DNA of 23,863 nt, taken from assembly GCA_022566155.1 (NCBI GenBank), contig JADFJS010000011.1, forward strand, positions 1 to 23,863, given 5' to 3'. Both the position numbers and the translations under genes were made by a program. Below are positions 5,786 to 23,863 of the stretch, piece after piece; position 1 is the first letter of the stretch, and each line of letters opens with the position of its first letter. Origin of the DNA: Chloroflexota bacterium. Its GTDB lineage: Bacteria; Chloroflexota; Dehalococcoidia; Lucifugimonadales; UBA3495. Below the pieces are notes generated by a model that worked only from the letters and a program-made list of their open reading frames with translations, searched no databases and was not told the DNA's origin.

Positions 5786-7108
5786 ATGAAAGTCCTGATC
5801 GTTGGCTCGGGAGCCAGGGAACACGCCCTGGCCTGGCGTCTGGGCCAGAGTCCTTCGATCACCGGCATGTGGGTTGCCAATGGCAACGGCGGTACCGGCC
5901 GCATCGCCACCAATCTAGACATCTCGCCCGAAGACGTTGACGGTGTCGTGGGCGCAGCCCAGTCCTTGCAGATCGATCTGGTCGTCGTCGGCCCAGAGGT
6001 GCCTCTGTCCCTGGGTTTGGTGAACCGCCTGGATGCCTTGGGTATCCCATCCTTTGGCCCCACCCGGGCCGCGGCCCAGATCGAGTCCAGCAAGGCCTTC
6101 GCCCTGGAGGTGATGCAGGCAGCCGGGGTGCCCTGCCCAGACTTTAACGTATTTCATGAGCAGGGTGCCGCCCTGGACTTCCTGAGCCTTCACCGCGATC
6201 CAGTGGTGATAAAGGCGGATGGACTGGCCGCCGGCAAGGGTGTTTACCTGTGCCGGACACCGGAGGAAGCGACCGCGGCGGTGCGGGCTTGCATGGATCA
6301 GCGGGTCTTCGGAGACGCCGGCAACACGGTGGTGATCCAGGAGTACCTGTCCGGGCCCGAGGTGAGCATCTTCGCTTTCTGCGACGGCGAGCACCTATCT
6401 ACTCTGGCGGCCGCCTGCGATTACAAGCGGTTGAAAGACGGGAACGAGGGCCCCAACACCGGCGGTATGGGCAGCTTCGCCCCACCCGGCTTCTGGACTG
6501 CCGGCATGGAGGAGCGTCTCCGGATCACGGTCATGGAGCCGGTGATACGGGAAATGTCCGAACGCGGGACCCCCTACCGGGGCATCTTGTATGCCGGACT
6601 GATGTTGACCGAGGCGGGCCCCAAGGTGCTGGAGTTCAACTGCCGGCTGGGCGACCCGGAAGCCCAGGTGGTGCTGCCTTTGCTGGCCGGCGACCCATTG
6701 GAGATAATGTTGGCCTGCCACGAAGGACGCCTGTCCAAGGTTCCGGTCCGGTGGAGGGCGGACAACTACGTGGGCGTGGTGATGGCATCGGGGGGCTATC
6801 CGGCCGCATACGAAACCGGGTTCGAGATCGTCGGTCTGGATGACGCCGATGAGGAGGCCCAAAACACGATGATATTCCATGCCGGGACCCGTTCTTCCAT
6901 TCAAGATCGGCCGGGCCGGGTGACCACGAGCGGCGGCCGGGTTCTCACCGTGGTCGGACGGGGCGATTCGCTGGCAGAAGCGCGTGATAGGGCTTATCAT
7001 AGGGTGCGGAGGATCGACTTCCGAGGCGCCTACTATCGTACCGATATCGCCGCAATGGAGAGCATAGAAGGGGAATTGGCAGCGAATCCGGCAAAGGCGA
7101 GTGGCTAG
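5786..7108 (+). CDS. purD: phosphoribosylamine--glycine ligase
   Basis: 440 aa. MKVLIVGSGAREHALAWRL N-terminus, ATP-grasp core and a PurD C-domain (GGRVLTVVG). AAGGG Shine-Dalgarno upstream. Confidence 0.95.
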   Translation: MKVLIVGSGAREHALAWRLGQSPSITGMWVANGNGGTGRIATNLDISPEDVDGVVGAAQSLQIDLVVVGPEVPLSLGLVNRLDALGIPSFGPTRAAAQIESSKAFALEVMQAAGVPCPDFNVFHEQGAALDFLSLHRDPVVIKADGLAAGKGVYLCRTPEEATAAVRACMDQRVFGDAGNTVVIQEYLSGPEVSIFAFCDGEHLSTLAAACDYKRLKDGNEGPNTGGMGSFAPPGFWTAGMEERLRITVMEPVIREMSERGTPYRGILYAGLMLTEAGPKVLEFNCRLGDPEAQVVLPLLAGDPLEIMLACHEGRLSKVPVRWRADNYVGVVMASGGYPAAYETGFEIVGLDDADEEAQNTMIFHAGTRSSIQDRPGRVTTSGGRVLTVVGRGDSLAEARDRAYHRVRRIDFRGAYYRTDIAAMESIEGELAANPAKASG

Positions 7109-7190
7109 GCTGCTGGAAAGCATATCGATCAGCCCCGAAGATGGCACTGGTTTGCTATGCCCCTTCTCAAGCAGCCAAGGGCACGGGCGG

Positions 7191-7219
7191 GTGACTTTTT
7201 TCGATATAGTTTGTAATAT
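7191..7219 (+). promoter_or_regulatory. candidate promoter GTGACT-N17-TAATAT upstream of the acidic ORF/purE
   Basis: Hexamers at 7191-7196 and 7214-7219 with 17-nt spacing. Partial matches to TTGACA/TATAAT. Confidence 0.25.
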
Positions 7220-7253
7220 GGGAGCGACCGGGCTTCGGTTGGGGAGGTACTAG

Positions 7254-7712
7254 ATGGCGTGGCGAGACACCTTGGGCAGGCTGCGGGAAGAGCTGGCCGA
7301 TGTGCGGGCGGAACGGCAGCGGCAGGCCGCCGCCGATGAAGCCGAGATCCAGCATCAACGGGAAGAGTTGTCCAAGCTGGTCACTTCCTTGGAGATCAAC
7401 CAATTGCTCAACGAGATGAAAGCCACCCTGCTGAACGGCCAGGGGGAACTAGAAACCATCATCTCTTGGGAAGCACCGGCCGACGGCGACGATGAAGACA
7501 TTAACGACCGTGACGATTCCGAAGAGGAAGAGGGCGACCTCATTGCCAATATATTGATATGGGATGAGGCCGGTGAACGGGAGATCGCGGTGGACCTTGG
7601 GTCGAGTGAAGATGGGACCTACCTCCAGGTTAACGGCGTGGACATTCGCCTGGAGGCCGAAGCCCTGGAGCAGGCGCTGGTGGAGGCTTTCCGCGATGAA
7701 TTGGAGCTGTGA
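7254..7712 (+). CDS. hypothetical acidic protein (predicted coiled-coil N-terminus, D/E-rich middle)
   Basis: 152-aa ORF with a GGGGAGG Shine-Dalgarno 7 nt upstream of the ATG. No recognisable family. Lies between purD and purE. Confidence 0.55.
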   Translation: MAWRDTLGRLREELADVRAERQRQAAADEAEIQHQREELSKLVTSLEINQLLNEMKATLLNGQGELETIISWEAPADGDDEDINDRDDSEEEEGDLIANILIWDEAGEREIAVDLGSSEDGTYLQVNGVDIRLEAEALEQALVEAFRDELEL

Positions 7713-7748
7713 TCTCTTGACCTCCAGTCCGCATATGAGGTGCTCGTT

Positions 7749-8207
7749 TTGCCGTTAGTCGGTGTTATCATGGGAAGCGCTTCCGACGAGCCGGTGGTCC
7801 AGGAGACAGTGGACACCCTGGAGCTGCTCCACATCGACTACGAGGTCAGGGTGATGTCGGCCCACCGGACACCGGAGCGGGTGCAAGAGTACGCCCAAAC
7901 GGCTAGAGACCGTGGAATCGAGGTGTTGATAGCGGCGGCCGGCGGCTCGGCGGCCCTTGGAGGCGTCTTGGCCTCGTGGACTACCCTACCGGTGATCGGC
8001 GTACCCCTGGCCTCCAGCGAGCTGAAGGGCATGGACGCCCTCTTAGCCACGGCGCAGATGCCTCCGGGTATCCCTGTGGCATGTATGGCCGTGGGATCGT
8101 GGGGAGCGCGAAACGCGGCCTTCTTCGCCGCAGAGATTTTGGGGCTGAAGTATGACCACATCAGGCAGGCCTATGAAGAATATCGACAGCAGCTCCGGGA
8201 GCGCTAG
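7749..8207 (+). CDS. purE: N5-carboxyaminoimidazole ribonucleotide mutase
   Basis: PLVGVIMGSASDEP...GIEVLIAAAGGSAALGGVLAS...PVIGVP is the PurE signature. The track starts at GTG 7740 with no Shine-Dalgarno spacing. TTG 7749 (MPLVGVIMGS, like B. subtilis MQPLVGIIMGS) follows a GAGGTG at 7 nt. Confidence 0.9.
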   Translation: MPLVGVIMGSASDEPVVQETVDTLELLHIDYEVRVMSAHRTPERVQEYAQTARDRGIEVLIAAAGGSAALGGVLASWTTLPVIGVPLASSELKGMDALLATAQMPPGIPVACMAVGSWGARNAAFFAAEILGLKYDHIRQAYEEYRQQLRER

Positions 8208-8208
8208 G

Positions 8209-8934
8209 TTGGTCCCCGCGGTACTGGTCGATTTCGACGATACCGCGGCAGAACAGAACGTAGCCAATCTGCTTCTGGAGCGATTTGGAGACCCATCCTG
8301 GCAGTCGGTTCGGGAACGGTTTCGCAGCGGCGAGTTAACTCTGAATGAATATCAGGAGATAACTTTCCGCAACATCCTGGCGGACCGGGCCATGATGCAG
8401 GATTATGTCAAGGAGCACGCCAACCTGCGGCCCTACTTCCACGATCTTTGGAGATACTGTGAAGCCAACCAGTTGCCCATGGCCATAGTCAGCCAGGGGC
8501 TGGACTTTTACATCCAGGCTTTGTTGGAAACGGAGGGGCTTCCCCAGATCCCGGTTTATTCCGTGAACACCAAGTTCACCCCGCAGGGCATCACCTATCA
8601 GTACTACCACACCTTCCCGGGACACGAGCGGGAGGGGAACTCGAAAGGGCTGGTGGTGGACGTTTACAAGAAGCGGGGACATTACATCATCTATGCCGGC
8701 GACGGAATTTCCGACCTGGAAGCCGCGCCCAAGGCCGACCTCCTTTTCGCCCACCGGACATTAGCCGAAGAGTGCCGGCGGAAGGAGATCCCGTTCCGTC
8801 CCTTCAAAGATTTCCAGGCTGTTCTGCTGGCCTTGCGCGAGGTACACCTGAACGGTAATCAGCCAACTTCGGGTGAGGAAGCCCAAGGGAAAGATGGTGA
8901 TAGTGCCGGTGGTGGTGAGGAGGCCCTTAGGTGA
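8209..8934 (+). CDS. HAD-superfamily subfamily IB phosphatase, MtnX-like (2-hydroxy-3-keto-5-methylthiopentenyl-1-phosphate phosphatase family)
   Basis: VLVDFDDT (HAD motif I), an internal cap domain, IYAGDGISDLEAA (motif IV), then ADLLFAHRTLAEECRRKEIPF. The architecture is collinear with B. subtilis MtnX. The track ORF starts at 8152, inside purE. TTG 8209 is 1 nt after the purE stop with a GGAG at 8198-8201. The stop TGA 8932-8934 overlaps the purB start GTG 8931 (GTGA). Confidence 0.7.
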   Translation: MVPAVLVDFDDTAAEQNVANLLLERFGDPSWQSVRERFRSGELTLNEYQEITFRNILADRAMMQDYVKEHANLRPYFHDLWRYCEANQLPMAIVSQGLDFYIQALLETEGLPQIPVYSVNTKFTPQGITYQYYHTFPGHEREGNSKGLVVDVYKKRGHYIIYAGDGISDLEAAPKADLLFAHRTLAEECRRKEIPFRPFKDFQAVLLALREVHLNGNQPTSGEEAQGKDGDSAGGGEEALR

Positions 8935-10289
8935 TCGATCGATATTCGCGGCCGGCGATGAAGCGTGTCTGGTCCGACGACTATAAATACGAAAAATGGC
9001 TTCTATTGGAGCTGGCGGTGTGCGAGGCATGGACCGAGGAAGGGGTCATCCCCCTGGAGGACATGGTCCTTCTTCGCAACGCCAAATACGATAGCCAGCT
9101 CATGCAAGAGATATTGGTCACCGTCCACCACGAGACCAACGCCTTCCTCTCTTCGATAACGAATGGATTGGGTCCGGAGGGACGTTGGCTGCACCTGGGT
9201 CTGACCTCGTCGGATAAGCTGGACACTGCCCTGGGGCTTCAGCTCATGGACGCCGGCAAGCTGCTGCTGGAGGACATGGATGATGCCATCTCGGCCTTGA
9301 AAACCCAGGCCGTCAAGCACAAAGACACGTTGATGATGGGCCGCACCCACGGCGTGCATGCCGAGCCCATAACCTTTGGGCTGAAGCTGGCCGTTTGGTG
9401 GGATGAGATGCGGCGCCAGCGCGCCCGGTTGGTTGAAGCCCTGGAAAGTGTTCGGGTTGGCAAGATCTCCGGCGCGGTGGGCACCCACGCGACTGTGCCG
9501 CCCAGTGTGGAAGAACGGGTCTGCCAACAGTTGGGCCTTCAGGTAGCGCTGGTGTCTAATCAGATAATCCAGCGGGACCGTTACGCCCACTTTGTACTCA
9601 CCCTGGCCCTCATCGCCGCATCGCTGGAGAAATTCGCCACCGAGTTGCGGGCGCTGCAACGCACGGAGATACGCGAGGTGGAAGAGCCCTTCGAAACCGG
9701 CCAAAAGGGCTCCTCCTCCATGCCCCACAAGCGGAATCCGGAGCTGGGCGAGCGCATCTGCGGCATGGCCCGGCTGATCCGTGGCTATAGCGTGACCGCG
9801 CTGGAAAATGTGGCCCTCTGGGGAGAGCGCGACATCAGCCACTCGTCCGCCGAGCGCATCATCCTGCCAGATTCCTGCCTGGCCCTGGACTACATGCTCA
9901 GTATCTTCACCCGCGTCATGAGCGGACTAAGGGTATACCCGGAGAGGATGTTGGCTAACATCGAGAGCAGCCGGGGGCTGGTATTTAGCCAGCGAGTGCT
10001 GCTGGCCATGATCGACAAAGGTATGGCCCGTGAGGCTGCCTACGAGTTGGTACAGCGGAACGCCATGCAGGCGTGGGACGAAAACGAGGACTTCCGCCAG
10101 CTCCTCAGGTCGGACACGGATGTTCTGGGCAGCTTGTCCACCGCCGAGCTGGATGAATTATTCGACTACGATTACTACACCCGATACGTTGACGACACCT
10201 TCGACAGGTTGGGCTTACTGCCGGCGAAGCGGGCAACCGTCAGCCATCAGGCGGCGCAGGTAGACCAACCGGCGCCGGTAGACCAATAG
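8931..10289 (+). CDS. purB: adenylosuccinate lyase
   Basis: MIDRYSRPAMKRVW (compare B. subtilis MIERYSREEMSNIW), a fumarate-lyase signature GSSSMPHKRNP, and an ADSL C-terminal domain. Confidence 0.95.
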   Translation: MIDRYSRPAMKRVWSDDYKYEKWLLLELAVCEAWTEEGVIPLEDMVLLRNAKYDSQLMQEILVTVHHETNAFLSSITNGLGPEGRWLHLGLTSSDKLDTALGLQLMDAGKLLLEDMDDAISALKTQAVKHKDTLMMGRTHGVHAEPITFGLKLAVWWDEMRRQRARLVEALESVRVGKISGAVGTHATVPPSVEERVCQQLGLQVALVSNQIIQRDRYAHFVLTLALIAASLEKFATELRALQRTEIREVEEPFETGQKGSSSMPHKRNPELGERICGMARLIRGYSVTALENVALWGERDISHSSAERIILPDSCLALDYMLSIFTRVMSGLRVYPERMLANIESSRGLVFSQRVLLAMIDKGMAREAAYELVQRNAMQAWDENEDFRQLLRSDTDVLGSLSTAELDELFDYDYYTRYVDDTFDRLGLLPAKRATVSHQAAQVDQPAPVDQ

Positions 10290-13289: not shown

Positions 13290-13609
13290 CGGCGCTCGCG
13301 GACCCCATAGGCAACCGGGGTATTGCGGCTCATCCTTGGGCAATGGCGTCGCGTGTGTCGTTCCGGCGAAAGCCGAAATCCAGAGACGTAGGCTTCTATG
13401 GGACGTTCGCCCAAACTGCGGCGTTCGCCCAGACAAGGAAATCCGCGCCTATCCGCCGTAGGCAGACGGCCTACGCCGGAACGACGAGGGAAGTTCGCCG
13501 GGGGCACAGCCGCGACGCTCACTATTTCAATCGCCAGATTCGGATCAGCACGAATGGGAGCGCATCCGCCTGCATTCAAGCCGCTGCGGCCGGCGGCGCA
13601 TCCCCGGCG

Positions 13610-13638
13610 TTGACAGTAACAAGTGCCCCCACTACACT
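13610..13638 (+). promoter_or_regulatory. sigma70-like promoter TTGACA-N17-TACACT for gene A
   Basis: Consensus -35 at 13610-13615, a 17-nt spacer and TACACT at 13633-13638. It lies inside the track's extended ORF 13343.., which argues that extension is not coding. Confidence 0.5.
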
Positions 13639-13705
13639 CGTATTTAGCCCTTTGATTGACCAATACCGTGCAGCGTCCCGGGACGTTGCGGCGGGAGACG
13701 TTGTG

Positions 13706-16207
13706 ATGCCAAGCTGCCCAGCGTGTCAAACAGAGGTGCAGGCGGACTCGAGGTTCTGCCCCGAATGCGGCCACGCCCTGTCTGCCCCGCCTGCCGGCGC
13801 CGCACAGCCGGCGCAACCGTTTCCGCCTGCCCAGGCCGGGAAGCCGGAAGCAACTTCTTTGCCTGCCGAGGCCGAGGAGTCGGCTGAAAGATACCTGCCT
13901 GCCGACGTGCTGGCCCGGCGGATTCAGCCCCGGGAGATGCAGGGCCTCTTCTCCAAGACCCTGGTCATCGAGGAGGGTTATGAGGCGCTCCTCTTGCTGG
14001 GAGGAAGGCTGGACACCACCCTGACGCCTGGGAAGCACTCCATGGGGAATTTTCTATCTTCCCGGACCAGGGACACAACCGTCGTCCTGTTCCGAACCTC
14101 CGACGCGACCCTGAACACCTCCATCGAGCGGGTGTTCACCTCCGATCCGCTGCCCCTGAGCCTGGATTTGCGCATGGTCCTGAAGATCGAGCAGCCCTTG
14201 CGCCTCTGGAGCAACCTGGCGTTGGGCGCCGACTCCTACTCCACGCGCAACCTGGCCGCCGCCCTCTATCCTCTGGCTGAAGAAGGGTGCGAATATTTTT
14301 TCAAGTCTCGCAAGATGCGGGACCTGGACGCCAATCAGAGCACGCGCCAGGAGATAGAACTTGCTTTGGCCTCTCATCTGGAACAGCCCCTGTCCCGGTG
14401 GGGGCTGCGGCTAGTGTCCGCGCAGGCACTGGGGTTAAGGAGCGAGGCCTGGGACGAAATCAGCAAGTCCCGCATAGAGTACGCGGTGTCTGCCTCCCGG
14501 GAGGAGGCCGCACTGGAAGGACGCAAACGTCTCTTCGACGTCCACCAGGAATCGGACATACAAACCATGGCCGAGGAGACATTGGAAGTAGCCGGCGTGG
14601 AGAAGAGGGTAGCCCTCTGGGAACGCATGCGCCAAGCCCTGCTGTCCAATGCCAAGGGCGAGATTCAGTCCCAGGCGGAACTGGAGGACGTGGTCCGCCA
14701 GGCGGATCGGGACCTGCTCCTTAAAGATGATGAACACCAGTCCTTGATTAAGGCCATGTCCGAAGCCGGGGAGGACCATGAGAAGGCCCGCGCCTTCGTT
14801 CTGCGGCGGGTTGAGGCCGAGGGCGAGCACGAGCTGCAGAAACTGGACCTGTGGCACCAATACGGATTGGGCCAGGAGCGGCTGAATTGGGAGATATCCA
14901 CGGCGCGCCAGGAGATGGAGGGCCGCTGGGAGCTGGAGCTTCGGCGCCTGGACCTGCAGATAACCGGACAGCAGAGAGAAGCGGATTTTCGCCGCCAGCA
15001 GGAGGAAGCAGACCAGGATACCGCGCGCAGCAGGCAGTTGGAGAACGCCAGGACCACCGCGGCCATTGGCGACATAGAGCGGGACCAGGACCAGAAAGAC
15101 GCCGATCTCGGCATGAACCTATACAACCAGTACCGGGCTGCTCGGCGGGAGGATGAGATTGCCCGCCGACAGGCCGAGATCGATGCAGAGGAGAGAAGGC
15201 AGAACTTGACCCTGCAGGCGGAGAGCCAGCGGGTGGAGCTACGCCTGAGGGAATCGCAGCAGCAGCACCGTAGCGAGTTGGAGCGCATCGATGCCCTGTC
15301 CAACTTAGGGATCGAGACCCTGATCGCCGTATCTGGAGCCGAGCAGAGCCAGATGCTGGCCCAACTGGCCCGCACCCGTGCGCTGTCCGGCTGCTCTCCT
15401 GAGCAGATCCTGGCCATGCAGGCCCACGAGAGCCCCCAGGTAGCCGACGCCCTCAAGGAGATGCTCACCGCCACGGCCGCTTCCGGCCAGCTGGAGCAGT
15501 ATGAACGTTTGGTGACCGAGCTCAAGGATAGCGCCAGAATGAGCCGGGAGGACTACCAGCAGAACATGGTCACCATGAACCAGATGTTCAATAAAGCCCT
15601 GGACAGCGTCAAGGATACTGCCGTGGCTTTCAGCTCCGTCCCGGCAACCGTCGCCGCGCCACCACCGCCGGACCTGAGGTCCCACACCGCCCCGGATGGT
15701 ACCGTCACCCTGCTATTCAGCGATATCGAGGGCTCCACCGCCATGTTCGACAGGCTGGGCGACCTGCGTGCCCAGGAGGTCCTTCATATCCACAACGACA
15801 TCTTCCGCCAGAGGTTAGAGTCCTTCGACGGCCATGAGGTCAAGTCCATGGGCGACGGTTTCATGCTGGCATTCTCCAGCGCCCGAGACGGGATCCAGTG
15901 CTCCATCGCGGTCCAACGGGCCTTCGCCGCCCACAATAGCCAGGAAGCAAACGAGCCAATCATGGTGCGCATGGGTCTCCACACCGGAGAAGCCATAAAG
16001 GAGAATCAGGACTATTTCGGCAGGAACGTGATCCTGGCGGCGCGTATCTCGGCCAAAGGCAAAGGCGGGGAGATCCTGGTGTCTTCACTGGTCAAGGAGT
16101 TGACCGAAAGCGCGGGGGACATACCTTTCGACGAAGGACGTGACGTGGAGCTTAAAGGACTGGCCGGTGTCACCCGCATCTACCCGGTACACTGGGAAAA
16201 GCCCTGA
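13706..16207 (+). CDS. Multidomain protein A: double zinc ribbon + SPFH/band-7 domain + flotillin-like coiled coil + class III adenylate cyclase
   Basis: ATG 13706 follows a GGGAG at 8 nt. N-terminus MPSCPACQTEVQADSRFCPECGH (two CxxC pairs), then a P/A-rich linker. SPFH N-terminal strands LVIEEGYEALLLLGGRLDTTLTPGKH. An E/R/Q-rich coiled coil of about 400 aa. C-terminal cyclase homology domain (CHD, class III nucleotidyl cyclase): LLFSDIEGSTAMFDRLGD, VKSMGDGFMLAF, QDYFGRNVILAARISA. No TM segment. The track's earlier start (13343) gives an R-rich low-complexity extension that contains the promoter. Confidence 0.8.
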   Translation: MPSCPACQTEVQADSRFCPECGHALSAPPAGAAQPAQPFPPAQAGKPEATSLPAEAEESAERYLPADVLARRIQPREMQGLFSKTLVIEEGYEALLLLGGRLDTTLTPGKHSMGNFLSSRTRDTTVVLFRTSDATLNTSIERVFTSDPLPLSLDLRMVLKIEQPLRLWSNLALGADSYSTRNLAAALYPLAEEGCEYFFKSRKMRDLDANQSTRQEIELALASHLEQPLSRWGLRLVSAQALGLRSEAWDEISKSRIEYAVSASREEAALEGRKRLFDVHQESDIQTMAEETLEVAGVEKRVALWERMRQALLSNAKGEIQSQAELEDVVRQADRDLLLKDDEHQSLIKAMSEAGEDHEKARAFVLRRVEAEGEHELQKLDLWHQYGLGQERLNWEISTARQEMEGRWELELRRLDLQITGQQREADFRRQQEEADQDTARSRQLENARTTAAIGDIERDQDQKDADLGMNLYNQYRAARREDEIARRQAEIDAEERRQNLTLQAESQRVELRLRESQQQHRSELERIDALSNLGIETLIAVSGAEQSQMLAQLARTRALSGCSPEQILAMQAHESPQVADALKEMLTATAASGQLEQYERLVTELKDSARMSREDYQQNMVTMNQMFNKALDSVKDTAVAFSSVPATVAAPPPPDLRSHTAPDGTVTLLFSDIEGSTAMFDRLGDLRAQEVLHIHNDIFRQRLESFDGHEVKSMGDGFMLAFSSARDGIQCSIAVQRAFAAHNSQEANEPIMVRMGLHTGEAIKENQDYFGRNVILAARISAKGKGGEILVSSLVKELTESAGDIPFDEGRDVELKGLAGVTRIYPVHWEKP
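15697..16195 (+). other. class III nucleotidyl (adenylate) cyclase catalytic domain within gene A
   Basis: Metal-binding Asp residues (FSDIEGST, GDGFM), substrate Lys (VKSMGD) and Asp (QDYFG), and transition-state Asn/Arg (GRNVILAAR). Confidence 0.75.
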
Positions 16208-16630
16208 CCGGATACCACCGGGTCCAGCAATGCGCCGAGTGTAAGGAGCAACATAGTCACTGCTGCAACGGCCAACGTCCGACCATATCGCCCGCCAGTG
16301 TTCGGCTTGCTTAATAGAAAATCATCTGCTAGCATTTTGTGGTGGTGAACCAGGAATGCGCCGGATAACCGATTAAAAATCACGCATCCTGGACTTTCTC
16401 GATGAAGATTGAACCAATGAGGCAAAGAGGCTCGGTAGCTGCCTCCTGGCAGGAAACCCGGAGACTTACTCTGATCCGGTAGGATCTTACACCGTTCCCT
16501 GTCGAAACCAAGCCCGGCCAGTGACTGGAAATGTTTCCATTGCCGGACCAGCCTAGTTCAGCGCCGATACCGGCCAACGGCAATAGTAATCACCCAATCT
16601 CAGCAAGGACGGCCAGCAAGGAGGTGCGAT

Positions 16631-18190
16631 ATGACCCTGCGCTCCAATGATGCAGCCGGAGGCTCCGCCGCGACGGCCGACGTTGATGACGACCTGGTAT
16701 TGCTGGAAAGTACCCGCGTACCGGACCTTCCCGGATTTCTAAGCAGAAATGTGGTGCTCGGCCCAGAGGAAACCGGCTTCGTTACGGCCAACGGAAGCGT
16801 AGTCTCGGAGCTGAGCCGCGGTTCCAACAAGGTTGGGTGGTCCTTTTTCGGCTGGTTCGGAAGCAGCAACCGGGAGGTAGTCAAGCTGCACAACCGGCCG
16901 TTCCGGCTGCGCCTCTACTTCACCGGCCTGCTTTCCAAAGGATATGACACCCTGGACGCGATGATCCACCTCACCGTTTCGGTGAGGGACCCGTCCCTTT
17001 TCTACAGCAGAATGGGACGGGGCATGGTCCGCCTGTCGGCCAGCCAGTTGGCGAGCCGGGTCGCCGCCAGCATGGACGACCTGCTCCAGGTCAAGGTCAC
17101 GGAGATAGACGGCCAGGCCCTGCGCCACGACCGCCAGGTGCAACACCGTCTGACCACCGACCTGGAGCCCACGTTGAACCGGGCCCTGGACGAGCGGGGT
17201 GTAAACCTGGAAAGCGTGGACCTGGTCGCCTTCGACAATCCCGGCGAGGGAGACGAGCTCCTGAACGAGCTGGCCGATGCCGACAGGATGATAGCCAGCG
17301 GCACCAAGCCAGGACGTGAGGACATTCAGCGCACTCTGACCCGCCTGCAAGCCGCCGGCCTGGCCACTCCGGAGATGGCGGAGCGGGCCCAACTACTCTA
17401 CGATGGCGGCACCAACGATGCCTTCTTTGGCGTGATGAAAGACATCAGCCGGGCATCTAGGCGCCGGCTGGAGGCCCGGCTGGCCGACCGGTCGGAGCAA
17501 CTCACCCAGAAACTTAATGGCGACGAGACCCCAACATCCGCCGGCATGCTGTCGATGGAACGATTGTTGAAGTTCATCGGTCCGATATGCGCCATTGTGG
17601 GCCTGGTTTACAAGTTTGCATTTACGGGATTCGCCGGCGGTCCGATAGTGCTCATTGGTGGCCTGATCGGAGCCGTGGCCTTCGCCGGCGGATACCTTAT
17701 TATCCGCGCCAAGCGTATCCTGGGCATCGGGAAGGGGGATGAAATCGTGATCCGGCTGGACCGGTGGGCCAAGAAAAACAGCATGGCCACCGACGACTTG
17801 ATCCGCCGCCAGATGGGACGTGAGTTTTCCAACAGCTTGACCGACGTTAAGGATGCCAAGCTCGTGGCCTTCCGCGAGGACAAGAAAGCTGTCGCCAACG
17901 CCTTGAGCGACCTGGAAAACCGCATGGACCTTATGCGTACCGAGGTAGAGTCGGCCCCGGCCGCCTCCACCATAGTATCGGTGAAAAACTTTCCCACCCA
18001 GCGCATATCCCGGATGGTCAGCTTCGAAGAGGAGCTGCTGCGTCAAGCCAGAAACCTTTCCATCCGCTCCCAAACCGCGAAGGAGTCCCTTAGCGAAGAG
18101 GACGTGGAGGCGTTGCGGGTGGGCCTGGACAATTTCCACCGGTCATTCTCCAAGCGCCTTGGCCTGCTGGAAGGATTCAAGGAACTTTAA
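16631..18190 (+). CDS. Protein B: SPFH-like N-domain + internal hydrophobic hairpin + coiled-coil tail
   Basis: AGGAGG 7 nt upstream. N-terminus NVVLGPEETGFVTANGSVVSELSRGSN, paralogous to the SPFH start of A and C. A band-7-like core. A 45-aa hydrophobic stretch FIGPICAIVGLVYKFAFTGFAGGPIVLIGGLIGAVAFAGGYLII (two TM helices or a re-entrant hairpin). A C-terminal helical region. Confidence 0.75.
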   Translation: MTLRSNDAAGGSAATADVDDDLVLLESTRVPDLPGFLSRNVVLGPEETGFVTANGSVVSELSRGSNKVGWSFFGWFGSSNREVVKLHNRPFRLRLYFTGLLSKGYDTLDAMIHLTVSVRDPSLFYSRMGRGMVRLSASQLASRVAASMDDLLQVKVTEIDGQALRHDRQVQHRLTTDLEPTLNRALDERGVNLESVDLVAFDNPGEGDELLNELADADRMIASGTKPGREDIQRTLTRLQAAGLATPEMAERAQLLYDGGTNDAFFGVMKDISRASRRRLEARLADRSEQLTQKLNGDETPTSAGMLSMERLLKFIGPICAIVGLVYKFAFTGFAGGPIVLIGGLIGAVAFAGGYLIIRAKRILGIGKGDEIVIRLDRWAKKNSMATDDLIRRQMGREFSNSLTDVKDAKLVAFREDKKAVANALSDLENRMDLMRTEVESAPAASTIVSVKNFPTQRISRMVSFEEELLRQARNLSIRSQTAKESLSEEDVEALRVGLDNFHRSFSKRLGLLEGFKEL

Positions 18191-18243: not shown

Positions 18244-20199
18244 ATGCCTGCCAAATTATTCAACAATCGTTGGGAGCGGGAGCCGGATGATTTCGCGGCC
18301 GTGTTGAGCGAGAGGGATCTGGCCGGCTTCACTACCAAGAACATCGTCATAGAAGAAGGCACCATGGGCCTCCTTCTGGTCCAGGGCCGCTTCGACCGAA
18401 GGCTGGACCCCGGCGAGCACGCTTTGGAAGGTGGCCTTGGGGCCATCTTTGTGGGCCGTGAGAGAAAGATCGTGGTCCTGGTCAGCCTAGGCGACGCTAT
18501 GCTGCACATCACCCTGCCGCGCCTATTGACCCGAGACCCGGTTCCCTTTGGCGTACAGGTGGCGCTTACCCTGAGATTCAATCCGGGGCGGGAAGCCATA
18601 TTTCTCAGCAACTTTATGTCGGGTAAGGAGTCCCTCACCACCCACGACCTGCGGAACCTGGTCTACTCCGAGATCAACGAGGCCGCCCAGGCTTGGGCCG
18701 GTGGCCACACCATCAGGGAATTGGGCGAAAATATGGCCCTTCGGGACGAGATGGCCCTCGCCCTCGAGGCCCACATCAGGCCGCTGCTGGACCGCTACGG
18801 CCTCACCTTTGGCCGCCTGGAGGTCCGGGATTTCAAGTCGGAGATCTTGGACCGGTCCGTGAACCAGCGGGTGGAAACCTCCCTCCAGGTTACCAAGGAG
18901 CAGGCCGAGTTGGAGGGCCGCAAGAGGTTCTTCGACATCGCCGTGGAGACGGACATCCAAGACGTCACCGAAGAGACCCAGAAGGTGGCCACCTACGAGA
19001 AGCGGATCCTGTTATGGCAGCGCATGCAGCGAGCGGCGAACCAGGAGCAGATTGACAAGATAAGCTCCGAACAGGACCTGACCGACTTCATGCGCCAGAC
19101 CGACCGCGACAACCTGTTGAAAGAGGACGAGTTGGAGCGGTTCAAACAGGCGTTGGTGGACTCCGGTGAGGACCGGGAAAGGCTCCGCGCCCAGATCATC
19201 CGCCTAGCGGAAATGGAGGCCGAGTACGATTACAAACGCAAGGAGCTGTCCCAGCAGGCATCCCTGAGCCAGGAGCAGTTGGAAGGGGAGATGGGCCTGG
19301 AGCGGCTGCGCATGGAGGGCCAGCTTGAGACGGCGTTGAAGCGCACCGACCTGACCCTGGAGCGGGAACGCCGGGAGGCTGAGCAGGCGCGCAACGAGGA
19401 AGACCTGAACGCCGCCGCCCGCTACGAGCGAGAGCTGCGGGAGGCCAGGACCGGGGCCGAAGCACAGGGTATCGCCAGAGAGACCGCCCGGTTGGACGCC
19501 GAGCTGTCCCTGGCGCTGGAGGACCAGCGGGCGGCCCAGGAACGCCTGAATCAACAAGAGCAAGTCAGTATGACACTCCAAAGGCAGGCCGACGAGCAGG
19601 AACTGGCATTTAAGGCTGAGGAGGCCAAGCTAGACCTGCGCCTCCGAGAGCTTAGGGACCAACACCAGCGCGAGCTGGAGTCCATGCAATCCATGGACGC
19701 CGTCTCATTGCACACCTTGATTGCCGTGGCGCCGGGCGAGAAGGCGCCCTTGCTGGCGGAGTTGGCTCGAACCGAGGCACTCAAGAGCCTGTCGCCGGAC
19801 CAGATATTGGCCATCGCCGCCGAGAAGAGCCCCGAACTTGGCGGCGCTTTGGCTGAGATGGCAGCCCAGGGCGGCAGCGAACAGGCCAAGGCGATGTATG
19901 AACGTATCCTGGAAGAGCAGAAGGGCGCTGCCGCCGATATGCGGGAGAGCCAGCGGGAGATGACCGAAACCATGAAGGAGATGTTCAACAAGGCCCTGGA
20001 AACGCAGGCACAGGTGGCCTCGGCCTTCGCCCAAGGGATAGGACAGGCCGCCCAGAATCCAACGCCTGCCGCGGGCTCGGGTTCGCCCGGAGCAGCACCC
20101 CAGCGCGTGGTTGTCTGCCGGCGCTGCCTGACGGAGTCCGCCACGGGGACCAGGTACTGCCCCAACTGCGGCGACAGCATCATGAACGAACCTCGGTAG
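18244..20199 (+). CDS. Protein C: SPFH/band-7 + flotillin-like coiled coil + C-terminal double zinc ribbon (paralog of A without the cyclase)
   Basis: AGGAGG 6 nt upstream. IVIEEGTMGLLLVQGRFDRRLDPGEH aligns with A. QAELEGRKRFFDIAVETDIQDVTEETQKVATYEKRILLWQRMQRA aligns with A's EAALEGRKRLFDVHQESDIQTMAEETLEVAGVEKRVALWERMRQA. HTLIAVAPGEKAPLLAELARTEALKSLSPDQILAI aligns with A's ETLIAVSGAEQSQMLAQLARTRALSGCSPEQILAM. It ends with CRRCLTESATGTRYCPNCGD. Confidence 0.8.
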   Translation: MPAKLFNNRWEREPDDFAAVLSERDLAGFTTKNIVIEEGTMGLLLVQGRFDRRLDPGEHALEGGLGAIFVGRERKIVVLVSLGDAMLHITLPRLLTRDPVPFGVQVALTLRFNPGREAIFLSNFMSGKESLTTHDLRNLVYSEINEAAQAWAGGHTIRELGENMALRDEMALALEAHIRPLLDRYGLTFGRLEVRDFKSEILDRSVNQRVETSLQVTKEQAELEGRKRFFDIAVETDIQDVTEETQKVATYEKRILLWQRMQRAANQEQIDKISSEQDLTDFMRQTDRDNLLKEDELERFKQALVDSGEDRERLRAQIIRLAEMEAEYDYKRKELSQQASLSQEQLEGEMGLERLRMEGQLETALKRTDLTLERERREAEQARNEEDLNAAARYERELREARTGAEAQGIARETARLDAELSLALEDQRAAQERLNQQEQVSMTLQRQADEQELAFKAEEAKLDLRLRELRDQHQRELESMQSMDAVSLHTLIAVAPGEKAPLLAELARTEALKSLSPDQILAIAAEKSPELGGALAEMAAQGGSEQAKAMYERILEEQKGAAADMRESQREMTETMKEMFNKALETQAQVASAFAQGIGQAAQNPTPAAGSGSPGAAPQRVVVCRRCLTESATGTRYCPNCGDSIMNEPR

Positions 20200-20569: not shown

Positions 20570-23500
20570 TTGGCCGAAGACGCGGAAAAAAAGGAAGATC
20601 AGTACGGTATCGGCCCCGCCGGCGATCTGGAGTGGATTTCTCTGGAGCAGGCCGGCGTCCAGGCCATGCGCACCGCCAGAGAGGATCCGGGAAACTACGG
20701 CAGGACCTACTCAGGCACCCGCATGGTCTTCGACGTCACTGAGGAGGAGGACGGGGAAGACTACTACATCATCACCCTTTCCTTCCGCCCCGAGGGTGAC
20801 TTTTCCGGCACACCCGGCCAAGAACAGTTCTTCATAGAGAAAGAGGGCGCGGTTGCCGTTCGCCAGGTGCGCAGCCTGCCCGTCCCGGATCGAAGGCGCC
20901 GGTCCCGTGCCCCGGTCTACATTATTCTGGGTATCGGCGTTGTTATTGCTGGGGTGATTGGGGCCATGTTCGCCGCCGGCGTGCTACCGCCCGGCGCCGA
21001 CGGACCCACGCCCACACCCCCCATAGGACAGCAGGGCCAGGATGCCGTCCAGGTCACGGTGGAACTACTGCCAGGGCAGGCGGCTCGCTTGAACTCGCCG
21101 CAGGGTGATGTGACCGTAGACGTTAGCGCCGGGTCGGTAGACGGACCAATGGAACTTGTGTACCGGGAGCTGTCGCCGGACGAGATACCCGCAATGCCGG
21201 TGGGTTTCAACGCCTCGGACAAGCTATTCGATCTGTCCGTCACCGGTACCCAGGCCTCCACCACCGGCCGATTCTCATTTTCCAAGCCGGCCACCATTAC
21301 GGTGCGCCTCACCGCCGCACACGTAGAGCTTGCGGACAGAGAAGAGTCCAACCTGGTGATCCAGCACTTTGACGAAGCCAGGGGAGAGTGGACGGCTCTT
21401 CCAACTACCGTAGACTTCACCTTATTAACCGCTCGCGCCGAGGTGGAAAGTCTCAGCAAATTCGCCCTCACCATTAGGCAGCTCGGCGAGCAGTCCGTCA
21501 CAACCTCTCCCGGCGATACCTCAGCAGGGGATCAGATCAGTTTTGAGCTCACCGTCAACGGCAGGCAGGTGACCGGCCCAAGCGTAGACACCGCCAACGC
21601 CACCGTCGATGTCTCTCCGCCCCCCAACGCGCCGAATGACAGGTACATCACGGGGACGGAAGTGAAGCTTACGCTGTCCCCTGACAGTGGATACAAGGGC
21701 TCCTGCGATACTTCGTCCGTCTTCATGACATCGGACCTGGAAGTCGGCTGCTCCGTGACCAGGGAAAGCTACACGTTGAGCATTCTGGGCAGGCCGGTTA
21801 CGGGCCCAACGCTTGCCATGGCCGAAGGCACGGTAAACCTCTCGCCAGCCCCCAACGCACCTGGCAACCAGTACATTTCCGGTACCGTGGTGAACGTCAG
21901 CCTCTCGCCGGCCAGCGGATTCGAGGGCTCTTGCGACACCCTGGCGGTGACCATGACCTCCGACCGCAACGTTAGCTGCACCATGACCCAGCAGAGATTC
22001 ATCTTGACCATCGAGGGAGTCCAAGTGCTGGCAGGCCAGATAACGGTGGAAGTGGCCAACGGGGAGATAGACGTTAGCGAGGCCCCAGGATTCGATGGCA
22101 TGTACGCCGGCAACGTCGAGTTGTCTTTATTTGCTTACCCGTATTCCTCAGGCGCCACAATTTTTTGGAATGGGGTCGACACCGAGGGCTTCGAATCCGC
22201 CACCGTTCAGATGTCCAGGGACCGGTTTGTCACCGTGGACATCCTGCCGCTAGACCTCCACGGCGATTCCAGATTTGACGCCACGCCGATCTCGCCCGGC
22301 CTCACCTCGGGCGCCATCGATCCGCCCGGCGACCTGGACTTCTTCCAATTCTTCGCCCAGGCAGGCACCACCTACACGATCGAGGTGATTCCGGACACCC
22401 ACCCCGATACGTTACTCATCCTGTACGACTCCAGGGGCAACTGGCTGGATGAAGACGATGACGGGGGGCGAAGCGGTGGAGAACATCTGGAATGGACCGC
22501 CCCTTCCACCGGCGAGTACTACATCGAAGTCCGCTCCTTCGATCAGAGCTTCGATACAGGTTCCTATACCCTGTCACTGAGCACCGCGGATGACCACGGC
22601 GACTCCATTGATACCGCCACGTTCGTCTCCTTCGGCCTCACACCGGGCACCATTGGCCCGTCCGACGACGCGGACTATTTCGGCTTTTCGGCCCAGGCCG
22701 GCACTGCTTACCTCATAGAAGTGATCCTGGAAAGTCACCCCGATACGGTCCTGACTCTCTACGACTCCCGGGGCAACTGGTTAGATGAAGACGATGACGG
22801 GCGACGGGACGGTGGGGAATCAATCACTTGGACCGCCCTTTCCACCGGCGATTACTACGTGGCAGTCCGCTCCTTCTACCAGGAGTTCGATACAGGTTCC
22901 TATATCGTGTCGATCAATGTGGAGGATGACCACGGTGACTTTATCGGCACCGCCACGACCGTCTTCCTCGGCTTTACATCGGGCAGCATCGACCCGCCCG
23001 ACGACCTGGATTATTTCCGTTTCTCCGCCCAGGCCGGCACCACCTACCTGGTAGAGGTGATCTTGGAAAGTCACCCGGATACGGTCCTGACCCTTTATGA
23101 CTCCCGGGGCAACTGGATAGAGGAAGACGACGACGGGGGACGGGAAGGCGGAGAATCGATCACCTGGACCGCCACTACCAGCGGGAATTACTATTTCGAA
23201 GTCAGGTCCTTCGACCAAAGCTTCGACAGAGGCTCCTATACTCTATCGCTGAGTATTGCTGATGACCACGGCGACTCCATCGAGACGGCGACAGCCGTCT
23301 CCCTCGGCCTCACCTCGGGCGTCATCGACCCGTCCGGCGACTTGGACTATTTCCGGTTCTCCGCGCAGGCCGGCTCGACCTACACCATGGAGTTGATCTT
23401 GGGGACCCACCGCGACACGATGCTCACCCTTTACGACTCCAGGGGAAACTGGTTGGATGAAGACGATGACGGGAGACCGGAAGGTGGAGAGTTGTTGGAA

Positions 23501-23863
23501 TGGACCGCCCCACTGGCCGGCGATTATTACATCGAGGTCCGCTCCTACGACCCGAGCTTCGATATAGGCTCCTACACCCTGTCGCTGAACGTTGAAGTCC
23601 GTGCCGTCGACCGGCACGGCGATTCCATTCAGGCCGCCACGTCCATCGCCACAGGCATCAACTCGGGCGCAATTGACCCTTCCGACGACCTGGACTATTT
23701 CAGTTTCTTCGCCCAGGCAGGCACCACTTACATCATCGAGGTGATCCTGGGCTCCCACCCCGACACTCTGCTCACGATCTACGACTCCCGGGGCAGGTGG
23801 CAAGGTGAAAACGACGATGGGCGGCGCGGAGGCGGGGAACTAGTGGAATGGACCGCCCCGTCC
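20570..23863 (+). CDS. Type II membrane-anchored surface protein: ~105-aa cytoplasmic N-domain, 1 TM, Ig-like region, 2 divergent InlB-B-like repeats, at least 5 PPC (pre-peptidase C-terminal) domains. Partial, continues beyond the right edge
   Basis: Frame 2 is open from the TAA at 20522 to the window end. It is absent from the ORF track because it has no stop. N-terminus ...RRRRSRAP then TM VYIILGIGVVIAGVIGAMFAAGV (positive-inside, so the C-terminus is out). Two ~80-aa repeats with ATVDVSP..Y.GTEV.LTLSP.SGY.GSCDT..V.MTSD..V.C (divergent InlB B-repeat pattern). Five ~112-aa repeats with HGDS..TAT..G.TSG.IDP..DLDYF.F.AQAGTTY.IEVI...PDT.LTLYDSRGNWLDEDDDG...GGE...WTA..G.YY.EVRSFD.SFD.GSYTLSL (PPC pattern). 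Start TTG 20570 preferred over ATG 20666 because of promoter spacing and the Shine-Dalgarno. Confidence 0.75.
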   Translation, partial: MAEDAEKKEDQYGIGPAGDLEWISLEQAGVQAMRTAREDPGNYGRTYSGTRMVFDVTEEEDGEDYYIITLSFRPEGDFSGTPGQEQFFIEKEGAVAVRQVRSLPVPDRRRRSRAPVYIILGIGVVIAGVIGAMFAAGVLPPGADGPTPTPPIGQQGQDAVQVTVELLPGQAARLNSPQGDVTVDVSAGSVDGPMELVYRELSPDEIPAMPVGFNASDKLFDLSVTGTQASTTGRFSFSKPATITVRLTAAHVELADREESNLVIQHFDEARGEWTALPTTVDFTLLTARAEVESLSKFALTIRQLGEQSVTTSPGDTSAGDQISFELTVNGRQVTGPSVDTANATVDVSPPPNAPNDRYITGTEVKLTLSPDSGYKGSCDTSSVFMTSDLEVGCSVTRESYTLSILGRPVTGPTLAMAEGTVNLSPAPNAPGNQYISGTVVNVSLSPASGFEGSCDTLAVTMTSDRNVSCTMTQQRFILTIEGVQVLAGQITVEVANGEIDVSEAPGFDGMYAGNVELSLFAYPYSSGATIFWNGVDTEGFESATVQMSRDRFVTVDILPLDLHGDSRFDATPISPGLTSGAIDPPGDLDFFQFFAQAGTTYTIEVIPDTHPDTLLILYDSRGNWLDEDDDGGRSGGEHLEWTAPSTGEYYIEVRSFDQSFDTGSYTLSLSTADDHGDSIDTATFVSFGLTPGTIGPSDDADYFGFSAQAGTAYLIEVILESHPDTVLTLYDSRGNWLDEDDDGRRDGGESITWTALSTGDYYVAVRSFYQEFDTGSYIVSINVEDDHGDFIGTATTVFLGFTSGSIDPPDDLDYFRFSAQAGTTYLVEVILESHPDTVLTLYDSRGNWIEEDDDGGREGGESITWTATTSGNYYFEVRSFDQSFDRGSYTLSLSIADDHGDSIETATAVSLGLTSGVIDPSGDLDYFRFSAQAGSTYTMELILGTHRDTMLTLYDSRGNWLDEDDDGRPEGGELLEWTAPLAGDYYIEVRSYDPSFDIGSYTLSLNVEVRAVDRHGDSIQAATSIATGINSGAIDPSDDLDYFSFFAQAGTTYIIEVILGSHPDTLLTIYDSRGRWQGENDDGRRGGGELVEWTAPS
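21535..22005 (+). repeat. 2 x ~240-bp tandem coding repeat (InlB-B-like domains)
   Basis: The protein repeats ...VTGPSVDTANATVDVSPPPNAPNDRYITGTEVKLTLSPDSGYKGSCDTSSVFMTSDLEVGCSVT and ...VTGPTLAMAEGTVNLSPAPNAPGNQYISGTVVNVSLSPASGFEGSCDTLAVTMTSDRNVSCTMT. Partial DNA identity. Confidence 0.5.
22259..23863 (+). repeat. at least 5 x ~336-bp tandem coding repeats (PPC domains), truncated by the window end
   Basis: Unit starts near 22259, 22603, 22933, 23269 and 23617 (periods 330-347 bp). Each encodes a DDHGDS...SYTLSL unit. Long near-identical DNA stretches, e.g. ctttacgactcccggggcaactgg. Confidence 0.85.

Follow-up and report, generated by a model that had tools for sequence, protein, structure and literature searches.

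The stretch of DNA considered here (23,863 nucleotides, called the window below) belongs to a Chloroflexota bacterium of the GTDB lineage Dehalococcoidia; Lucifugimonadales; UBA3495 (GenBank assembly GCA_022566155.1, contig JADFJS010000011.1). The gene of interest, A, encodes a protein in which a class III nucleotide cyclase domain lies behind a scaffold made of a zinc ribbon, an SPFH domain (stomatin, prohibitin, flotillin, HflK/C) and a long helical region; two further SPFH genes, B and C, follow it. The fusion is a new architectural variant of a known cyclase class, and its cyclase domain, to judge from its residues, is most likely an active and ATP-specific enzyme. The parts of A and the promoter-like site ahead of it are:

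13706 to 16207, + strand: gene A, 833 amino acids (aa), with zinc ribbon, SPFH domain, long helical region, flexible linker and class III cyclase domain (open reading frame and translation, Pfam, homologs)
13610 to 13638, + strand: promoter-like site for A, TTGACA, 17 nt, TACACT (10/12 matches in a consensus scan; a consensus match alone)
13715 to 13768, + strand: N-terminal zinc ribbon, aa 4-21, with C4, C7, C18 and C21 (Pfam Zn_Ribbon_1, E 6e-6)
13907 to 14440, + strand: SPFH/Band-7 domain, aa 68-245 (Pfam Band_7, AlphaFold2 (AF2) model, Foldseek)
14444 to 15634, + strand: helical region of about 400 residues, probably a coiled coil, aa 247-643 (AF2, composition)
15635 to 15694, + strand: flexible, Pro-rich linker, about 20 residues long (SVPATVAAPPPPDLRSHTAP), joining the scaffold to the cyclase (sequence, alignment, AF2)
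15695 to 16195, + strand: class III cyclase homology domain of the Ma1120 type, aa 664-830 (Pfam PF00211, match to Ma1120)

The open reading frame (ORF) listed for A runs from 13343 to 16207 on the + strand (954 codons) and is over-extended at its 5′ end. The true start is almost certainly ATG 13706 (residue numbers refer to the 833-aa protein that begins there), because the promoter-like site falls within the extension, a putative ribosome-binding site (GGGAGA, 13692-13697) stands ahead of this ATG, and homologs of 786-832 aa begin at the zinc ribbon. About 50 homologs in this size range share the architecture of A, and all start with an MxxCPxC zinc ribbon. The extension itself (121 codons, 13343-13705) is a low-complexity open frame that is missing from every homolog and would mislead automatic gene callers. 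The over-extended frame, together with the origin of the sequences in metagenome assemblies, raises the question of whether the fusion is an artefact of assembly or gene calling. The chance of this is practically nil: a metagenome scan returned 80 loci, the fusion loci among them fall into 17 lineages at 90% cyclase identity, and the frame is continuous in these lineages, which derive from many samples and assemblers independent of one another, Tara, JGI and ENA among them. An original prediction, made from the letters of the window alone, had placed the cyclase domain at 15697-16195, in near-exact agreement with the interval given above, and the motifs that it quoted are all in frame in the + strand ORF of A.

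The cyclase domain and its catalytic residues

Pfam assigns the C-terminal domain of A to Guanylate_cyc (PF00211) with an E-value of 4.4e-19 and 69.2 bits (cut-off 21.9). Twenty cyclases in the PDB match A at E <1e-3; the best is Ma1120 (4wp3; phmmer E 3.4e-43, 42% identity over 175 aa), and Rv1900c and other class III enzymes rank after it. CyaB (3r5g) matches weakly (E 5e-5), and Rv1625c is not among the PDB matches at E <1e-3. Alignments to Ma1120 and Rv1900c served as the reference for individual residues. Ma1120 is a characterized adenylyl cyclase in which K101 and D157 set the preference for ATP, and the roles of K101, D157 and R168 (the transition-state Arg) were established by mutagenesis; its A167 occupies the position of the GTP-favoring Tyr in Cya2 (PMC4215837). 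The motifs and residues in A are:

15716 to 15739, + strand: motif FSDIEGST, aa 671-678 (translation)
15722 to 15724, + strand: D673, first metal-binding Asp, in FSDIEG (aligned to Ma1120 and Rv1900c)
15839 to 15865, + strand: motif VKSMGD/MGDGFM, aa 712-720 (translation)
15842 to 15856, + strand: K713 (substrate-specifying Lys) to D717 (second metal Asp), in VKSMGDG (alignment)
16007 to 16027, + strand: motif QDYFGRN, aa 768-774 (translation)
16010 to 16012, + strand: D769, substrate-specifying Asp in QDYFGRN (Ma1120 D157)
16019 to 16045, + strand: motif GRNVILAAR, aa 772-780 (translation)
16031 to 16033, + strand: I776, at the canonical transition-state Asn position, Ile here (H402 in Rv1900c, A164 in Ma1120)
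16043 to 16045, + strand: R780, transition-state Arg (Ma1120 R168)

Two of the residue assignments in the original prediction are borne out directly. Both metal-binding Asp residues are present (D673 and D717 align with the metal Asp pair of Ma1120 and of Rv1900c), and so are the Lys and Asp that would specify ATP, since K713 and D769 match the mutagenized K101 and D157 of Ma1120. The engineered entry 5d0g, in which K101 is Glu, marks the Ma1120 specificity positions in the alignment of A; the Rv1900c residue aligned with K713 is N342. With A779, which corresponds to Ma1120 A167, A has the full ATP-type triad of Ma1120 (K713/D769/A779).

The transition-state pair is a different matter. The prediction had read both an Asn and an Arg in GRNVILAAR and concluded that all catalytic residues were retained. 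The Arg stands (R780), but the canonical Asn lies in a fixed register, 7 positions past the substrate Asp and 4 ahead of the Arg, and A has Ile776 there; N774 of the GRN motif is two residues out of register and equals Ma1120 N162. The claim of a complete set therefore fails at this one position. A 2005 EMBO J structure paper on Rv1900c reportedly equated H402 with the catalytic Asn. The Ma1120-like deviation is a known variant that leaves A within the class III cyclases. In Ma1120, restoring the Asn (A164N) sharply lowered the adenylyl cyclase activity, and the guanylyl cyclase side activity was lost (PMC4215837).

These residues bear on whether the domain works at all. It could be catalytically dead and serve only as a dimerization or nucleotide-binding module, as the missing Asn, the loss of a metal Asp or of the Lys in some family members and the existence of natural cyclase-less variants would allow. 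We consider this quite improbable: activity is still likely because Ma1120 is active without the canonical Asn as well and A keeps each Ma1120 residue, and these residues are invariant across clades that are only ~30% identical overall. Among full-length relatives, D673 is kept in 29/32, K713 in 31/32, D717 in 29/32, D769 in 30/30 and R780 in 29/29, and three proteins ~30% identical overall (P0126, P0130 and P0137) keep all five plus Ile776. Between clades the cyclase domain is 53-60% identical and the scaffold 24-29%, which points to stronger constraint (purifying selection) on the enzyme part. The earlier view that the domain is probably active thus holds up, given a residue set like that of active Ma1120.

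The product is a separate question. Formation of cGMP, cCMP or cUMP instead of cyclic AMP (cAMP), or use of both purines, has precedent in Ma1120, which at alkaline pH still has some guanylyl cyclase activity and uses both substrates equally after three substitutions (PMC4215837); a non-canonical residue at the Asn position could also loosen the positioning of base or ribose. Such a product nevertheless has a low probability in our estimate, as A carries the ATP-type triad, lacks all of the GTP-type residues (Glu, Gly/Cys and Tyr) and resembles the pyrimidine cyclases (PycC) weakly. The PADLOC PycC models match A partially, with E 2e-5 or worse, in line with the original impression that the specificity residues differ from those of Pycsar (pyrimidine cyclase system for antiphage resistance) enzymes.

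The scaffold of A and the genes around it

Each part of the scaffold is recognizable. The four Cys of the N-terminal zinc ribbon are invariant across 17 diverse family members. The SPFH domain is matched by Pfam Band_7 (E 4e-9, 37.2 bits against a cut-off of 23.6), its AF2 model (strands and helices, aa 68-245) has a predicted local distance difference test score (pLDDT) of 80-93, and Foldseek matches of the A model in the PDB are exclusively SPFH assemblies (stomatin, HflK/C, prohibitin, erlin, QmcA, flotillin and the major vault protein, MVP; E 1e-9 to 1e-4). The region that follows (aa 247-643) is near-fully helical, with long AF2 helices at 247-317, 390-453, 460-533 and 596-643 and a composition rich in E, A, L, R and Q. 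The linker has no consensus in the family alignment, and pLDDT falls below 50 at residues 641-650.

The description of A as a cyclase fused to a flotillin scaffold was right about the fusion to an SPFH domain and long coiled coil (Band_7 and Foldseek agree) and too specific in its label. A has no Pfam domain of the Flot family, and flotillin ranks 17th among its Foldseek matches, after stomatin, HflK/C, prohibitin and erlin; assignment to the flotillin subfamily was rejected on these grounds. The accurate label is an SPFH protein with an unusually long coiled coil. The prediction had also noted that A has no transmembrane (TM) segment and no HAMP, GAF or PAS domain, and neither a hydrophobicity scan (TM) nor Pfam (HAMP, GAF, PAS) found any. 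Its further idea, that the coiled coil governs dimerization of the cyclase, needs to be reworded: the Pro-rich, low-confidence linker argues against rigid coupling, so the coiled coil would not be a rigid signaling helix, but control through tethering and local concentration is possible. The membrane anchor of SPFH proteins (an N-terminal TM segment or hairpin) is not found in A, C or distant family members. SPFH proteins that lack an anchor exist (YdjI and the vault protein), and its absence does not exclude membership.

The other features of the window that concern A are:

16307 to 16335, + strand: promoter-like block within the A-B spacer of 423 nt (16208-16630), TTGCTT, 17 nt, TAGCAT (conserved block)
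16631 to 18190, + strand: gene B, 519 aa, with a divergent SPFH domain (aa 19-202), helices, a TM hairpin and C-terminal helices (hhalign, AF2/Foldseek)
17564 to 17710, + strand: two hydrophobic segments in B, aa 312-360 (Kyte-Doolittle, 19-residue window, maximum 2.25)
18244 to 20199, + strand: gene C, 651 aa, with SPFH domain, long coiled coil and C-terminal zinc ribbon; a paralog of A without cyclase (Pfam Band_7, E 4e-9)
20116 to 20169, + strand: C-terminal zinc ribbon of C, CRRC...CPNC (CxxC...CxxC) (sequence)
20663 to 23863, + strand: gene D, partial, running off the window, with a small N-terminal domain, one TM segment and four PPC repeats (open frame, TM scan, PPC match)

B has no Pfam match, and its SPFH domain was recognized by profile and structure: comparing the B and A families with hhalign gives a probability of 97.6% and E 4e-12 across the SPFH domain (the first ~200 residues of B), and the AF2 model of B matches HflK/C and stomatin (Foldseek E 8e-7). 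AF2 places helices at 304-330 and 337-363 in the hydrophobic region of B, and this hairpin in the middle of the protein is the sole predicted TM anchor of the A-B-C set. C shares 31-37% identity over ~590 aa with A-family proteins, and a hydrophobicity scan found no TM segment in it. On sequence comparison and modeled structure, then, A, B and C are three SPFH paralogs. The arrangement recurs in related loci: B lies downstream of A in L002, L003, L005, L007, L013-15, L019 and L021, and C lies downstream of B in L002, L003, L013 and L019, with the A-B-C order kept. No NCBIfam model was found for A, B or C.

A strong putative ribosome-binding site (AAGGAGGT) stands ahead of B. The promoter-like block at 16307-16335 is the sole block conserved among the A-B spacers of the window, L002 and the divergent L003; we infer from this that it may act as a promoter, a reading that implies a leader of ~290 nt ahead of B. 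Given this block, B and C may not share a transcript with A. Scans of the window for Rfam families and tRNAs found nothing, and the A-B spacer is accordingly without an Rfam match.

Upstream of A lies a cluster for purine biosynthesis, with guaA, purD, a putative purE, a HAD-family gene, purB, purC, a DUF3105 gene and a putative purS, and then a gene for a BNR-repeat protein. The syntenic counterpart of the putative purE in L002, L003 and L013 carries an AIRC domain. L002 has an additional gene for an 827-aa SMC_N/AAA_23-type ATPase (7169-9652), with the BNR gene on one side and A on the other; the window lacks this gene. Near the start of the window there is a phosphoglycerate kinase gene (958-2220, - strand), adjoining a partial - strand ORF (1-900) that runs off the window start and presumably encodes a protein like cofactor-independent phosphoglycerate mutase. 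Neither PspA nor ESCRT-III was found in the main window ORFs (Pfam) or among the listed called genes of related loci.

Linked genes, distribution and variants of the family

Fusion loci were compared with reference proteins by tblastn, and in the related loci A is linked to genes for a ThiF-type E1, an E2 and a JAB protein. Where A stands alone, without B and C (solo-A lineages), 9/9 have a convergent JAB peptidase gene 40-137 bp past the cyclase stop, then E1 and E2. The window clade has the three genes in 3/3 loci with enough flank, in two arrangements: 7.5-8.7 kb downstream of A, past C and the PPC genes (L002 and L003), or 1.9 kb upstream of A on the same strand (L015, in another chromosomal context without the purine operon). 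By PADLOC, these genes match accessory models of CBASS (cyclic oligonucleotide-based antiphage signaling system): JAB at E 1e-20 to 1e-24, E1 at E 2e-35 to 6e-42 (‘E1-E2’ models) and E2 at E 3e-21. The catalytic Cys of E2 and the HxH...S..D metal motif of JAB are present. No CD-NTase was found in any locus, and the sole match to a PADLOC ‘Cyclase’ model is the E2 protein, on the E2-like C-terminal end (378-540 of 542).

A conserved separate gene for a ubiquitin-like protein was not found in the loci. Small ORFs beside E2 were considered as the missing protein and rejected, as they are conserved among near-identical contigs only. The C-terminus of A as a substrate of E1, as in CBASS, is a weakened candidate as well, since A ends at its last cyclase strand without a tail. 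Two of the linked proteins have additions (L003 19984-20778 and L008 12388-13482, both - strand): ~110 further residues at the C-terminus of the JAB protein match RWD (E2-like) weakly, and the E2 protein has an N-terminal extension of ~200 residues that in L008 starts with its own zinc ribbon, echoing those of A and C.

The second kind of linked gene encodes proteins that bind cyclic nucleotide monophosphates (cNMPs). Upstream of A and divergent from it, nine contigs (6/9 solo lineages) carry genes for a histidine kinase whose N-terminus holds a cNMP-binding domain and for a GerE-type response regulator; kinase identity is 43-100%, and the kinase gene of L008 is at 6361-7542. In one further lineage, a CRP-type factor is found near A in four near-identical contigs; a CRP homolog lies at 13688-14353 in L010. 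It is plausible that these regulators read cAMP. The GC content of the solo-A clades is 42-52%.

Gene D may be a further component of the A system, to judge by where part of it recurs. Its N-terminal domain has ~75 residues (PGNYGR...EDYYIITLSFRPEGDF...QFFIEKEGAV), has no Pfam family and is followed by RRRR and one TM helix. The domain is found again in L002 (16858-17214), L003 (16610-16840), L005 (1107-1472, - strand), L006 (597-830 and 2983-3210), L015 (8514-8663) and L017 (16495-16809). Its contexts are the window clade, positions beside cyclase-less variants, the interval between JAB and A (L015) and a position just past E2 (in a solo-A lineage).

The E2, E1 and JAB genes introduce the main rival to a signaling role, namely that the locus is an anti-phage or conflict system like type II CBASS or Pycsar-like-4, in which the SPFH assembly would detect infection or membrane damage, the cyclase would raise a cyclic-nucleotide alarm, and E1/E2/JAB would prime or reset the cyclase. 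The strong CBASS accessory matches, tightly linked to the cyclase gene, speak for this reading, as does an August 2026 preprint that describes a Pycsar-related subclade linked to E2/E1/JAB with a predicted ATP preference (bioRxiv 10.64898/2026.08.12.744502). Outside the family, cyclase-STAND/TPR fusions are among the nearest sequence relatives of the cyclase domain, a class called immune in the same preprint (bioRxiv 10.64898/2026.08.12.744502); in some relatives the neighborhood of the locus has insertions of transposases and an SMC-like ATPase, and L006 has a Tle1-like lipase and a leucine-rich repeat (LRR) protein nearby. However, no recognizable effector was found (cNMP-binding TIR, Pycsar-type TM effector or nuclease), and the cNMP-binding neighbors are transcriptional or two-component regulators. 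PADLOC returned nothing for B and C, and for A the weak partial PycC matches. The window-clade locus stays fixed after the purine operon even though its A proteins are ~60% identical, so that it looks vertically inherited, its cyclase domain evolves slowly, and no plasmid carries the fusion (a mobile, plasmid-borne system was rejected for this last reason). On balance we regard a defense system as unlikely, though by no means negligible.

The family appears confined to marine metagenomes. Homologs of A and B come from these, the few that are named belong to SAR202-cluster Chloroflexota, and the B homolog of SAR202 Io17-Chloro-G9 is 89% identical; the window clade is SAR202. A profile search of 1.8 billion representative proteins gave four clusters (at 50% identity) with the full fusion; the query included cyclase columns, its lower ranks were flooded by unrelated cyclases, and the top matches alone are usable. 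The same search returned a much larger family with the layout zinc ribbon-SPFH-coiled coil-zinc ribbon, which dominates the wider family; among 67 of its proteins scanned with Pfam, the cyclase is the sole enzymatic domain. A scan of a genome collection with a single A protein found one unrelated Bacteroidetes cyclase and nothing else. Automatic annotation in IMG names some A-family members ‘class 3 adenylate cyclase’, and a literature search found no description of an SPFH-cyclase architecture and no report of an SPFH protein with a nucleotide cyclase.

Some members of the family lack the enzyme. Cyclase-less A variants of 619-648 aa (P0035-P0043; L005 1819-3681 and L007 180-2126) have a real stop right after the coiled coil and still precede B; past B, L005 and L007 have an incomplete ORF where the window has C. 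In a neighbor-joining tree of the scaffold region they form two groups, one of which branches first. By this pattern, in which B is retained without the cyclase, the scaffold is the older part, and the cyclase was joined to it or lost from it as a module. Elsewhere in the wider family, genes directly precede Ser/Thr kinase genes, with FHA genes nearby, in two unrelated contigs (L094 7001-10139 and L095 7001-11052), which hints that the scaffold is generally tied to signaling enzymes.

Other copies keep the domain and have altered residues: D717G, D673E/N or K713R occur in P0027, P0028, P0029 and P0031 (also in P0014 and P0016), and these are probably inactive or altered cyclases, as read from the substitutions. 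The A homolog of L004 (10001-14047) sits by itself amid transposase genes; it matches the cyclase up to residue 142/183, an IS-type (insertion sequence) transposase comes directly after, and it looks like a gene disrupted by insertion. The cyclase domain also has close relatives outside the fusion (58-67% identical, mostly from soil), and a number of these have other C-terminal partners (L042-L049, L051, L053, L054, L058, L063, L067, L070; L078, L080, L083, L089). Many have a conserved extension of ~230 residues (‘FRCEGEYWTL...’), and four have an extension of ~300 residues that is hydrolase-like by eye. These relatives show no link to E2/E1/JAB (0/55 loci with the cyclase domain alone).

Proposed assembly-gated signaling and known systems

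Four sets of observations bear on how the protein might work: what the domains are, which residues they carry, that A, B and C are paralogs, and which genes are linked to them in the genomes. Class III cyclase domains are active only as head-to-tail dimers. SPFH proteins form rings or cages that bring the C-terminal ends of their helices together, and their paralogs characteristically co-assemble. The reading that we favor, with about even confidence, is that A is an active, ATP-specific adenylyl cyclase tethered to an SPFH scaffold, forming an assembly-gated cAMP signaling device that is possibly tuned by conjugation. Since a dimer-dependent cyclase is flexibly tethered where helix ends converge, assembly of the SPFH scaffold would set the local concentration of the tethered cyclase domains and thereby gate cAMP synthesis. 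In the window lineage the scaffold would probably be a hetero-oligomer of A, B and C: A would carry the enzyme, the hairpin of B would anchor the assembly in the membrane, and C would contribute scaffold without an added domain. From the related loci, the cAMP might be read by the cNMP-binding histidine kinase with its GerE-type response regulator, or by the CRP-type factor, and E2/E1/JAB would probably tune the system through reversible conjugation, in analogy to the way Cap2/Cap3 prime CD-NTases. The enzymatic activity, oligomerization, membrane location, cAMP readers and E1/E2/JAB role in this scheme are what we infer from the four sets of observations.

Several points weigh against this picture. 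The canonical transition-state Asn is absent (Ile776; A164 in Ma1120), the activity of A is predicted from its sequence, and the sub-clade of P0027, P0028, P0029 and P0031 has lost a metal Asp or the substrate Lys, so that activity is not essential everywhere. The geometry of the oligomer is extrapolated from other SPFH proteins, and the membrane location would depend on B, as A and C are without a TM segment and the solo-A clades are without B. The window, which ends 7.66 kb past A, contains neither a cNMP-binding protein nor E2/E1/JAB; JAB of L002, the closest relative, begins 8.65 kb past A, beyond the equivalent end of the window. Finally, A proteins end at the edge of the cyclase fold (‘YPVNW’ and a stop, or ‘YPVHWEKP’ in the window), with no flexible tail that could be conjugated as in CBASS.

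If assembly-gated cAMP synthesis is correct, it would matter in several ways. In bacteria, class III cyclases are normally under the control of sensor domains (HAMP, GAF, PAS or membrane anchors) that act through a rigid helical connection; the regulator of A would instead be a self-assembling SPFH scaffold on a flexible tether, with control by assembly state and local concentration. SPFH proteins are ubiquitous, and their functions in bacteria are mostly unclear. A member with a built-in enzyme would make cAMP a direct readout of SPFH assembly, and sensing by SPFH cages would become experimentally approachable. The strict linkage to Cap2/Cap3-like E2/E1/JAB suggests that ubiquitin-like priming extends beyond CD-NTases, and the linked two-component and CRP regulators that bind cNMPs point to a complete signaling path, with possible relevance to the physiology of a very abundant uncultured ocean lineage (SAR202). 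A bolder version, which we offer tentatively, is that the SPFH-cyclase with E2/E1/JAB is an unrecognized second-messenger module, in which an SPFH sensing platform, a conjugation switch of a kind previously seen only with CD-NTases, and cNMP readers or effectors would report membrane damage or phage attack in deep-ocean Chloroflexota.

The known systems that come closest each share a part of this arrangement. For the enzyme it is Ma1120 of Mycobacterium avium (the functional orthologue of the pseudogene Rv1120c; 4wp3, 4wp9 and 5d0g), the closest solved relative of the A cyclase. Ma1120 has the same metal Asp pair, Lys/Asp/Ala triad and Arg, lacks the canonical Asn and has an Asn two residues earlier, but it is a single domain of ~200 residues, whereas the cyclase of A lies C-terminal to a 650-residue scaffold behind a Pro-rich linker. 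No counterpart in A was matched to the N-terminal segment of Ma1120; a 2015 structure paper is said to have found that an N-terminal helix autoinhibits that enzyme.

For the scaffold, the sole structural matches of A and B are SPFH proteins with the SPFH fold and a long helix (HflK/C, stomatin, prohibitin, erlin, QmcA, flotillin and the vault protein). Pairs of co-assembling paralogs are usual among them (HflK/HflC, flotillin-1/2, PHB1/2 and erlin1/2), a parallel to the assembly proposed for A, B and C. Compared with the cage-forming members, the helical part is far longer here (~400 residues), zinc ribbons are present, A and C have no anchor, and the hairpin of B lies in the middle of the protein instead of at its N-terminus; an oligomer is proposed here by likeness to these proteins. 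YdjI of Bacillus subtilis, which acts with YdjG/YdjH and is linked to PspA, and the archaeal SPFH-coiled coil-zinc ribbon proteins of ESCRT-related loci share two features with the A system: an SPFH protein that has no TM segment of its own and relies on partners, and the pairing of SPFH with zinc-ribbon modules (PMC8581546; PMC10936438). Unlike the A loci, these YdjI and archaeal ESCRT-linked systems have no cyclase and no E1/E2/JAB.

For the linked genes, the comparison is with defense. Pycsar membership was rejected: the best PycC model matches A at E 2e-5 over 74 residues only, and the window and related loci have no cNMP-binding TIR or TM effector. Type II CBASS resembles the related A loci in placing the synthase of a nucleotide signal beside E2/E1/JAB without a separate ubiquitin-like gene. 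It differs in its synthase (a CD-NTase in CBASS, a class III cyclase here), and in the A loci E1 and E2 are separate proteins, there is no CBASS effector, the cyclase has no flexible tail, and the accessory genes are seen in the related loci and not in the window. In CBASS, Cap2 adenylates the flexible C-terminal tail on CD-NTases. Pycsar-like-4 shares with A a class III-type cyclase and is marked by E2/E1/JAB neighbors and a predicted ATP preference; the preprint mentions no coiled coil or zinc ribbon (bioRxiv 10.64898/2026.08.12.744502), and full-text searches pairing SPFH with CBASS or with nucleotidyl cyclase did not retrieve it. Set beside all of these, the combination of SPFH paralogs, a tethered cyclase, CBASS-type E2/E1/JAB and cNMP-binding regulators has no description in the literature searched, and it could form a new signaling or defense module.

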